A stretch of DNA of 64,000 nt, taken from Mobula hypostoma (lineage: Eukaryota). The notes below the pieces were generated by a model. The model was not told the origin of the DNA. It searched no databases and was given only the letters and a program-made list of their open reading frames with translations. The position numbers were made by a program, and so were the translations under genes. The DNA lies in NCBI RefSeq assembly GCF_963921235.1, contig NC_086097.1, positions 96,784,001-96,848,000 on the forward strand, read 5' to 3'. The stretch's first letter is position 1; the number at the start of each line of letters is the position of its first letter. Shown one piece after another: positions 1 to 28,181 of the stretch.

Positions 1-74
1 TCATCGTCGACGCTGTCTAGCTCCTCTTCGTCGTTGTAATAGTCGACAATGGGTGAGAGGAGAGCTGCGGACAT
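1..74 (-). pseudogene. SUDS3: SUDS3-like N-terminal coding fragment (captured host cDNA) inside a Gypsy element; continues beyond window start
   Basis: Minus strand from ATG at 74-72 reads MSAALLSPIVDYYNDEEELDSVDD, resembling the vertebrate SUDS3 N-terminus (MSAA..LL.P..EYY.E.DEELES.EDDE). CpG-rich, unlike the flanks. Only 24 codons are visible. Confidence 0.72.
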
Positions 75-1746
75 CTTCCCTGCCAAGCTGCCCTCCTTTG
101 TTGACACATCTAGTGCCTTGATGGTCTTCCAATCCAACTGGACTTTCCTGAGCCATTCACGTCCCAGCAATGGTGGTACTCCATTGTTCAGTACATAGAG
201 GTTCAGCTGCTGTGTTTTGTCTCCGTAGGTCACTGTCACTTTAATTTTGCCTTTGGGACGCACTTTCCATCCTGTGTAAGTCTTTAGCAGTAGTTTAGTT
301 TGTTTCAGAGGTATGTGAGAAAACAGTCATTTGTAATCATGTACAGAGATCACTGTTAAAGCTGAGCCTGTGTCCAACTCCGTTTTCAGTCTCACGCCCG
401 CCACTTGTGGAGTTATCCATATTACTCTTTGATCATCTGTCTCTTTCATGCTGTGAAGTTGCAGACAAGACAATTCACTTTCGTCTGAGTCGTTTTCATC
501 AGAACTGCTTTCTTTCATTTTGTGTACATTGTTGTGTTTTCCTTTCTGGGGTTTCTTGTTTCTCTGTATTTTGTCCTTTTTCTGCTGTTTACTAGCTTTG
601 CATACTCTGCCAGTGTGGCCCTGTTTGCCACAGTTTCTGCATTCTTTGTCTTTAAACCAACAATCATCAGGGTTATGTGGTATGGTCCCACAATGGTAAC
701 ATTGTTTACTAGCTTTGCATACTCTGCCAATGTGGCCCTGCTTGTCACAGTTTCTGCGTTCTCTGTCTTTAAACCATGTGACATGTTCCCACAGCAGTAA
801 CATTTCTTTCCTTCATTTCTGCTCAGTGACATTTTATTCGTAGCATATTCCAGAGATTTTTGTTGTATCTGTGAGGCACCCCATGCTGCTGTTTCCGTTG
901 ATATTACAATGTTCAGCACCTTCTCGAATGTAAGGTCTTTTTCACCCAGGAGCTTCTTCTGTGTGGTTTCACAGTGCGTGCCACACACTAACCTGTCCCT
1001 CAATGCATCCGATAGACCAGCTCCAAATTGACAATGTTCGGATAATTTGTGCAATTCAGCACAATATTAAGAAATACTTTCATTTTTGCTCTGATTCCGA
1101 TTGTGAAATATAAATTTTACAGCAATGATCAGTGGTTTGGGGTTTAAATGCTGTTGGAGAGTGTCTACTATTTGCTTGAACGTTTTGTCAGCTGGCTTTT
1201 CAGGGGTTAACAAGCTCCGTAGCAGGCCGTATGTTTTTGCTCCCATAACACTGAGTAAGTCACTGGCTTTCTTTTCATCATTACCATCATTAGCATCACA
1301 ATGTAACTCCACTCTCTCACTGTAAGTTGCCCAGTCTTCAATGCCACTATCAAATGCTGTAATGGTTCTAATCATCACAATCTTTGTTATGTTAATTTAG
1401 CCCCGTTTTCCCCTTGTTTTCTTTTTGACTCGCCTATCCTTTTTGCTAGAACCATGAGTGCACTCCATCTAGATCTGTGTGTCGCTTCTTTTTATCTTGC
1501 TTTTGGGGCAGGCAGACCCTCAGCCCTGGGGGTCAGCGCCGGCTGTGGTCTTGCCTGGACGTGCTGCAGCTCTATCTGTGTCTCTTGGTCTCCCGACATT
1601 CCCGACCCTGGCTGTGCTCCCACTTCCTTTTAGATTCGCAGCCTCGCTCTGCCTCCTTCTCTCGCTCCTTGGCTTATTCCTTGCTCTCTTTCTGCGAGTG
1701 CTGTTATCAACTAATAGACGGCGTTCCGATAAGATGTAGGTTCATT

Positions 1747-1759
1747 AACCTCGTCACCA
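1747..1759 (-). promoter_or_regulatory. Primer-binding site (tRNA-Ser(GCT)-like) of the Gypsy element
   Basis: Minus strand TGGTGACGAGGTT, 3 nt downstream of the LTR end; resembles the complement of the tRNA-Ser(GCT) 3' end (TGGCGACGAGG). Confidence 0.7.
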
Positions 1760-1762
1760 ATG

Positions 1763-1923
1763 TGTTGTGTATGTGGCCAGGTTACACAGTAATGCTGTTA
1801 GTGAAAACACCGGAGGTGGGAGCTAAGTTTCATGGTTCTTTACTGGCTGAATCCGAACTCAGCACACACATGTACAGATCAATACACGCCTAATAGTGCA
1901 TGCAACGACGTGTCCCTACAACA
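1763..1923 (-). repeat. 5' LTR (161 bp) of the Gypsy element
   Basis: Inverted termini TGTTG...CAACA adjacent to the PBS. Confidence 0.8.
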
Positions 1924-2116
1924 TAAAGTAGTCCCTTATTACACTGTAGGCCATACGGTACATCCATAATTGCCATTTTTAAAGGTGTCATATTTGCTTA
2001 AGGATGCAAAAACAATTAGCACTGGGAGAAAGATCAAGGCTAACAGTATAGTATGTGAATGTGGAGCAAGAGGGAGAGAAAATTATTTTAATGAATATTT
2101 TTTTGTTCTTTAACAG

Positions 2117-5065: not shown

Positions 5066-5120
5066 GTTAGTTCCATTGTTAATTACTGGATTACATTGTT
5101 AATAACTACATTGTTAATTA

Positions 5121-6310
5121 TTGCCTACTGACACAACCAATTGACAGACGACGCAATAGCCACTGCTCTACATACTGTCCTTGCAAATCTGGAGAAGAAG
5201 GCTGCTTATGTGAGAATGCTGTTCGTGCACTACAGTTCAACATTCAACACCGTAACTCCCTTCAGGCTCGACAGGAAGCTCAGAGACCTTGGCCTTGAGC
5301 CTGCCTTGTGCAGCTGGATCCTAGACTTCCTGTCAGATTGCCGGCAGGTGGTAAGAATAGGCGGCCTCACCTCCACCCATCTGACTGTCAACACAGGAGC
5401 CCCTCAGGGCTGTGTACTAAGCCCCCTTCTTTACTTCCTGTATACCCATGACTGTGTCGCCACCCACAGCTCTAATATGCTAATTACATTTGCCGATGAC
5501 ACTATATTGATTGGCCTAATCTCAAACAATAACAAAGTGACCTACAGGGAAGAAGTCATCCCTCTGACACAGCGGTATCAAGAAAGCAACCTCTCCCTCA
5601 ATGTCGCAAAAACAAAAAAACTGGTTGTGGAATACTGGAGGAATGGAGATGGGCTAGCCCCTATTGACATCAATGGATCTGGGGTTGAGAGGGTATACAG
5701 TTTTAAGTTCCTCAGTATCCACATCACTGAGGACCTCACATGGTCTTTACACACCAGCTGTATGGTGAAAAAGGCACAACAGCACTTCTTTCACCTCAGA
5801 CAGTTGAGAAAGTTTGGTATGGGCCCCCAAATCCTAAGAACTTTCTACAGGGGCACACAATTGAGAGCATCCTGATTGGCTGCATCACTGCCTGGTATGG
5901 GAACTGTACCTCCCTTAATCGCAGGATTCTGCAGCGAGTGGTGCGGACAGCCCTGCACATCTGCAATTGTGAACTTCCAATGAGTCAGGACATTTACAAA
6001 GACAGGTGTGAGAAAAGGGCCCAAAGGATCATTGGGGACCCGAGTCACCCCAACCACAATCTATTCCAGCAGCTAACATCCAGGAAACGGTACCGCAGCA
6101 TAAGAGCCAGGACCAGCAGGCTCCGGGACAGTTTCTTTCACCAGGCCATCAGACTGATGAACTCGTGCTGATTTGAGTGTATTTTTATGTTACATTGTTC
6201 TATTTATTATAAATTATTATAAATTACTATGATTGCACATTTGACAGAGACGTAAAGGTTTTTACTCCTCATGTATGTGAAGGATATAAGAAATACAATT
6301 CAACTCAAAT
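5121..6310 (+). mobile_element. Rex1/Babar-type LINE, 5'-truncated RT and 3' end
   Basis: ORFs 5141-5875 (GAPQGCVLSPLLY, FADD) and 5740-6171 (SRLRDSFFHQAIRLMN). Confidence 0.88.
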
Positions 6311-27795: not shown

Positions 27796-27938
27796 CAACG
27801 ACATGTTTCGCCCAGTCCAGCTATGACTGAGACACCAGACAGTGATGATGAGCTGCCTTGGTGTTCCATCTGCAATAATGATGCTGTCCTCCGTTGCCAT
27901 GACTGTGATGGGGACCTCTACTGTCACAGATGCTTTAG
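27796..27938 (+). CDS. ZFYVE19: ZFYVE19 exon, C-terminal B-box-type zinc finger
   Basis: ctccag|...|gtaagt; [32 protein letters not shown]; 143 nt, phase 0-2. Confidence 0.97.
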
Positions 27939-28181
27939 GTAAGTGCAGCTGGTAACTGCATGCTTTGAGGTCCAGTTGCTGAAAGCAGCTCAGAAGAATA
28001 AATGATTTGCGGCACTTTTACTCAAACTCTTTGTAACTGCGAATATTTTATGGTAATAAATAGTTCATGCTTTAACAGGTTTAAGAATTTTCAGGGGTCG
28101 GAATGATCCTAAACTTTCCACAGATGAACATGTCATTCAACTTTCATAATCTGTGCATGATACTTTACACCAATGTACATA

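Follow-up and report, generated by a model that had tools for sequence, protein, structure and literature searches.

A decayed Gypsy element whose pol is replaced by a spliced SUDS3 coding sequence in a ZFYVE19 intron of Mobula hypostoma, one of hundreds of related chimeric copies

The closest described systems are LTR elements that carry host mRNAs. The retrocopies described in the text of Tan et al. (2016; PMC5131818) resemble the locus reported here in that spliced mRNA takes the place of part of the internal ORF, the switch points show microsimilarity of about 6 bp, and both LTRs are retained; multi-gene chimeras and secondary retroposition as a non-autonomous element are shared as well. 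Most of those cases involve partial cDNAs found at a single site or a few, whereas the SUDS3 family described here comprises the whole coding sequence, about 350 copies by estimate, two more mRNAs, and recombination with a partner family. Maize Bs1, as summarized in the same paper (PMC5131818), is also an LTR element with pieces of three host genes, common switch points, and partial retention of the reading frame; however, it is a plant element with 1-5 copies per genome that has been argued to be a functional hybrid, while the SUDS3 family consists of hundreds of decayed copies whose cargo appears unconstrained. The vertebrate LTR elements CrocERV29, with KIT-ligand, and CrocERV31, with nectin3, likewise carry a whole host mRNA with common in-frame indels, but are presented in the source consulted (PMC4299795) as ERV4 retroviruses of 6-9 copies that retain pol and whose cargo is under purifying selection, in contrast to a Gypsy family that has lost pol and whose cargo appears neutral. 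The mechanism is known from the cases set out by Tan et al. (2016; PMC5131818), and its scale in a vertebrate is unusual; the family stands apart by this scale, by the serial exchange of cargo, and by signs that it recombined with a helper in a vertebrate. The openly accessible papers searched contain no description of it, and a term search of the main text of a manta/devil-ray genome preprint returned no mention of SUDS3, Sin3, or retrocopy.

The window, which is the whole 64,000-nucleotide stretch of M. hypostoma DNA that was analysed, holds on its minus strand (1-1962) the 5' half of a Gypsy element of non-autonomous type; the remainder lies past the window edge, and the complete element is 3.4 kb long (G000:C1:96782550-96785962). 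Its parts are arranged in the order LTR, gag, protease, the whole spliced SUDS3 coding sequence at the site where RT-RNaseH-integrase would stand, polypurine tract, and 3' LTR. The 5' LTR (1763..1962, minus strand, 200 bp, TG...CA), which had been recognized as an LTR in the original prediction but placed at 1763-1923, differs from the 3' LTR (G000:C1:96782550-96782773, outside the window, with the polypurine tract just before it) by a K2P distance of 0.121. The element is bounded by a 5-bp target-site duplication, with its 5' copy at 1963..1967 (minus strand) and its second copy after the 3' LTR at G000:C1:96782545-96782549, outside the window. Directly after the 5' LTR lies a PBS-like TGG motif (1749..1759, minus strand), presumably of tRNA-Ser identity, followed by a decayed gag (520..1375, minus strand) with CCHC zinc knuckles, a 117-nt internal repeat, one stop, and one frameshift, in which Pfam detects zf-CCHC (E 3e-4) and, weakly, DUF7083. 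The aspartic protease (126..416, minus strand, DTG at 374-366) is interrupted by a stop at 329-327; its split halves gave zero Pfam or PDB matches, and a PDB search with the protease of one sibling returned nothing significant, but the same stretch in four sibling copies matches gag-asp_proteas (PF13975/PF00077) with E down to 2e-8, which bears out the proposed Gypsy protease before the SUDS3 ATG.

The SUDS3 sequence is joined in frame behind this protease, and the minus-strand frame is open from 326 to 1, with the stop at 329-327 as its only interruption, as had been described. The join lies at a 7-nt microhomology common to partner pol and the host SUDS3 5' UTR (87..93, minus strand), followed by 12 nt of host 5' UTR in frame (75..86, minus strand) and SUDS3 codons 1-25 (1..74, minus strand, ATG at 74-72). 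The capture was originally thought to begin at the ATG itself, but host sequence begins 12 nt earlier. From the ATG onward, the encoded protein has a Pfam match to Sds3 (E 4e-6) and is 96% identical to ray (Mobula) SUDS3. Beyond the window edge, the intron-less SUDS3 sequence continues as anticipated, with the rest of the 12-exon coding sequence and about 110 nt of 3' UTR, to G000:C1:96783040, where a second microhomology leads back into an integrase tail, and then into the polypurine tract and second LTR. The RT, RNase H, and integrase core are absent from the window's copy and present in a partner family; together with the paired TG...CA LTRs, the short target-site duplication, PBS, polypurine tract, CCHC gag, and aspartic protease (the last recognized through siblings), this makes the element a non-autonomous derivative of a Ty3/Gypsy LTR retrotransposon. 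As predicted, a captured full-length spliced SUDS3 cDNA lies antisense in a ZFYVE19 intron, between a FYVE exon (L011:2996-3118, plus strand, about 5 kb before the window; PF01363, E 2.5e-5) and a ZFYVE19/ANCHR-like B-box exon (27826..27939, plus strand; PF22586, E 6e-12).

The source of the cargo is the host SUDS3 gene on C78, which was found with an exon-plus-donor motif and comprises 12 exons over 59 kb encoding 319 residues. All 12 exons are held in the element and 11 of 11 introns are gone, including an AT-AC intron, indicating that the cargo was a mature mRNA. Host intron 7 (G000:C78:8395737-8398853, L090) has the AT-AC ends of the minor-spliceosome type and is cleanly removed in the element. 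The SUDS3 of the window's copy is 95.2% identical to the host gene over 920 nt, the family median being 94.1%.

The partner family was recovered with a motif from the common 3' end, which has 110 exact matches in the genome; in the first 30 of these, the motif is preceded by the integrase tail in 18 and by the SUDS3 3' UTR in 12. All 18 pol-type loci share their LTR with the SUDS3 type, and most share gag and protease as well. In the one pol-type copy tested, the order is PR-RT-RNaseH-IN and the best solved match is Ty3 Gag-Pol; every pol-bearing copy examined is decayed (18/18). The pol-bearing Gypsy family (L098-L115, L143, L144) would account by proportion (18/30 of 110) for about 66 of the exact 3'-motif matches. 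At the 5' junction, which lies 12 nt before the SUDS3 ATG and thereby places SUDS3 in frame, the 7 nt common to partner pol and SUDS3 5' UTR are found without mismatch in 9 of the 14 pol-type copies. The microhomology at the 3' junction extends over 5 nt in 18/18 and over 7 nt in 5/18 pol-type copies, three letters having been fixed by the search motif. Between these points the cDNA takes the place of about 2.8 kb of pol without interrupting it, and neither a poly(A) tail nor a duplication flanking the cDNA was present at the junctions examined. Judged from sequence, this pattern is the two-template-switch signature described in the text of Tan et al. (2016; PMC5131818), and several features of an LTR-mediated retrocopy are found together: loss of 11 of 11 introns, cDNA replacing part of the internal ORF, microsimilarity at the switch points, and secondary retroposition with common switch points.

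The original interpretation treated the locus on its own and missed its hundreds of siblings, which together with it form a single mobile chimeric family with additional cargos. A search with the 330-bp junction region gave 1480 candidates, and all 40 matches scored span the junction at 92-100% identity. A 20-mer from the protease end has 150 exact matches, and a 20-mer across the exon 3/4 junction, carried by 42 of 77 copies, has 193, while controls gave 0 for each; assuming that the two patterns match independently, about 350 copies are estimated in the genome. The identical join is present in all 30 of a first set and in 38 of a further 40 loci picked by the protease (68/70 in total, a figure that is not a family ratio, as the protease-end pattern favours SUDS3-type copies), and loci picked by the exon 3/4 junction only lie inside the element with the identical join in 20 of 20 cases. 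SUDS3 exon 6 carries a gap of 18-29 nt in all 79 copies covered there (of 97), exactly 24 nt in 60 of them. One shared junction and one shared exon 6 gap point to one founding capture. Each copy sits in separate flanking sequence, and several carry a private 5-bp target-site duplication at the LTR ends. Proteins annotated as 'SDS3-like' in Hypanus sabinus and in two species of Mobula have the same 8-residue deletion, which is absent from the SUDS3 proteins of Pristis and Mobula; as at least two of the three species with the deletion differ from the window's species, an origin of the family before the stingray-mobulid split is likely, judged from annotated proteins. In these three ray species, public annotation counts decayed copies among protein-coding genes under the name 'SDS3-like', which inflates gene-family counts. 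At one further locus (L266:3913-4754, element orientation), gag-protease pieces come directly after the 3' LTR, as would fit a second element in tandem or nested arrangement.

Neither the window's copy nor the family appears young. LTR-LTR K2P has a median of 0.108 (0.053-0.153) in the 25 of 48 chimeric elements with a pair; the pol-type elements, of which 11 of 18 yielded a pair, have a median of 0.097, a value that includes one false pair. By this measure, the chimeric family and its pol-bearing partner are of the same age. Such LTR divergence, we assume, corresponds to tens of millions of years at slow elasmobranch rates. The stop at 329-327 had been attributed to CpG decay, which the siblings support, with the stop in 35 of 75 covered copies and two non-stop CpG states in 36. 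The stop is present in 6 of 16 pol-type copies as well; its candidacy as a lineage-founding change is unsupported, since pol-type copies have it and other CpG columns are equally skewed either way. Retention of many CpGs in the first 74 bp was also correctly noted (7 of 9) and had been taken as a sign of youth, but the window's copy represents the maximum among 62 siblings (mean 3.7), and as a hand binomial calculation gives about 2 copies expected among 62 to retain as many, CpG retention is no sign of youth.

Selection was assessed from variants among 77 copies. Singletons are neutral in both gag-protease and SUDS3 (omega about 1.2). Gag-protease variants at frequencies of at least 10% comprise 25 nonsynonymous and 23 synonymous changes (omega about 0.44), and singletons differ from variants in at least four copies (Fisher p 2e-6). 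For SUDS3, the variants at 10% or above number 8 nonsynonymous to 1 synonymous, omega is about 0.8 for variants in at least four copies, and the same Fisher comparison gives p 0.046 for the whole coding sequence and 0.16 for codons 1-220; no signal of purifying selection on the SUDS3 coding sequence is seen among the 77 copies, with low power on internal branches owing to a star-like phylogeny and a top class of 9 variants. Shared stops in SUDS3 are not depleted, and the lineage-marking SUDS3 changes away from the junctions, at codons 94, 100, 114, and 170, are all nonsynonymous.

Of the common gag-protease variants, 33 of 46 also segregate in pol-type copies, and in a gag-protease tree of 80 rows (67 SUDS3-type and 13 pol-type, each with at least 850 aligned bases, from 77 and 20) the two types interleave, with a single clade rejected at p-AU 1.2e-4 under a model that ignores recombination and with unsettled bootstrap values. 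A single capture combined with interleaved gag-protease sequences would imply repeated recombination with partner RNA, as expected with co-packaging, and the constraint on gag-protease looks to have been imported through this recombination. One near-fixed gag-protease difference between SUDS3-type and pol-type copies lies inside the search pattern and was discarded as an ascertainment artefact.

Sub-lineages of the family carry two further host cargos. Automatic classing of 97 copies yielded 48 with SUDS3 only (22 with a longer UTR and 26 short or cut off), 28 with antisense RNF213 attached through two junctions, 9 with YBX, in which RNF213 comes next where the locus extends far enough, and 12 that could not be assigned. 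The YBX piece (CSD, E 3e-20) derives from a gene on C75, seven of whose exons it holds in spliced form; it enters through an 11-nt microhomology with SUDS3 and continues the SUDS3 reading frame in a natural copy, and a 10-nt microhomology marks the YBX-RNF213 junction. The RNF213 piece matches solved RNF213 with E 2e-31 and comprises exons of a C68 gene, spliced and in reversed orientation; that this third cargo might be part of YBX was ruled out by its mapping to RNF213 on C68. A GT-AG-bounded stretch of about 125 nt occurs in the antisense RNF213 cargo of L146, L152, L154, and L137 and is cleanly absent in L141, L123, and L126; judging from its boundaries, it is likely a cryptic intron spliced from the element's own RNA. 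In L123, L126, L141, L250, and L253, the RNF213 piece is inserted in SUDS3 and bordered on each side by a repeat of about 10 nt of SUDS3 sequence, after which SUDS3 resumes through its 3' UTR.

Taken with high confidence from these sequence comparisons, the window's element is a dead member of a non-autonomous Gypsy family in which spliced SUDS3 mRNA replaces the pol core, likely through two template switches, and which was likely multiplied by a pol-bearing partner with SUDS3 as a passenger. Host SUDS3 mRNA was probably co-packaged in the partner's particle, where reverse transcriptase would have switched at the microhomology to SUDS3 mRNA and back in one founding event. The resulting chimera, retaining every cis signal, would then have been copied in trans over the long term by the partner's enzymes to about 350 copies, and chimeric RNAs would have kept being co-packaged and recombined with partner RNA. 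YBX and RNF213 were probably acquired by the same route in sub-lineages, and the copies would decay neutrally after insertion. Packaging, template switching, and mobilization in trans are all inferred from the copies themselves.

Several other readings have been considered. A Gag-protease-SUDS3 polyprotein might be cut so that freed SUDS3 acts as a Sin3-HDAC decoy that aids the spread of the family. Four lineage-founding events retain the reading frame, namely the join at the 5' end, the deletion of 24 nt, a 57-nt deletion in a sub-lineage, and the join between SUDS3 and YBX (naively 1 in 81, calculated post hoc), which is more than a pure passenger needs and might be owed to RNA stability or to a decoy protein. 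RNF213-type lineages retain SUDS3 to about residue 226-233, past the Pfam Sds3 stretch at 54-166, and the commonest codon is never a stop at any SUDS3 column. The variant spectrum described above, the undepleted shared stops, and the nonsynonymous lineage-marking codons, however, weigh against a protein under selection; moreover, every covered copy lacks 8 residues of the Sds3 domain, the YBX lineage spread despite a SUDS3 cut at about residue 125, and recombination with the partner accounts for the gag-protease constraint. The decoy is accordingly judged improbable, and the fuller proposal, that a Gypsy element stole a Sin3-HDAC subunit as an anti-silencing decoy and later tried the RNA chaperone YBX in frame, is improbable to the same degree.

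The locus had originally been read as a young, possibly functional SUDS3 retrogene, which would be unique to this ZFYVE19 intron. The full-length coding sequence, its similarity to the host gene, and the CpGs retained at its start would fit such an origin, but the window's SUDS3 carries two stops and two frameshifts, gag and protease are broken too, and the variant spectrum is neutral; no intact ORF, as a functional retrogene would have, exists at this locus. As these breaks refute protein coding, the LTR divergence contradicts youth, the identity to the host lies near the family median, and siblings number in the hundreds, this reading is very improbable. A LINE-made SUDS3 processed pseudogene that landed inside a Gypsy element, with the locus then copied as DNA, is given next to no weight: the link between vertebrate retrocopy numbers and non-LTR elements drawn in the text of a recent preprint (bioRxiv 10.64898/2026.06.26.734816) would favour it, but the cDNA replaces pol rather than interrupting it, has microhomology at both ends with no poly(A) or duplication around it, and sits in copies that have separate flanks and, in several cases, their own target-site duplications.

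The preferred reading, capture by template switching and mobilization by a partner, bears on that preprint, which lists SUDS3 as one of the five most retrocopied genes in cartilaginous fishes, attributes retrocopy counts to LINE activity and selective filtering, and, in its text, names no LTR carrier (bioRxiv 10.64898/2026.06.26.734816). The SUDS3 retrocopies counted there are likely these same copies, and enzymes borrowed from intact relatives would explain SUDS3 as an apparently prolific source of pseudogenes in cartilaginous fishes; hitch-hiking on one element thus offers a testable alternative to LINE activity plus selection. For SLU7 and SDF2L1, also named there as top retrocopy parents in cartilaginous fishes, Pfam-domain searches of the genome showed no expansion in the domain, with 5 Slu7 family matches at one exon-split locus (G000:C21:67.57 Mb) and 18 matches to the MIR family (SDF2L1-type), nearly all in exon-like clusters. 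LTR-mediated gene capture would here extend over an entire family in the germ line of a vertebrate, from one capture to about 350 copies with serial re-captures, and the microhomologies preserved at each capture provide a natural record of packaged host mRNAs and template switching.

Among the 32 pieces listed from contigs of 4 runs, the protease-SUDS3 join is bridged, with at least 31 letters on each side, in two runs: X11 (record 14), guessed to be RNA, and X24 (records 21 and 22), of unknown kind. Record 14 of X11 also contains the host-type 24 nt, could combine host mRNA with element copies in a mosaic, and is not taken as a sign of expression. Elsewhere in the window, positions 5100-6000 resemble what we take to be a decayed LINE reverse-transcriptase fragment, and similar pieces interrupt many sibling copies.
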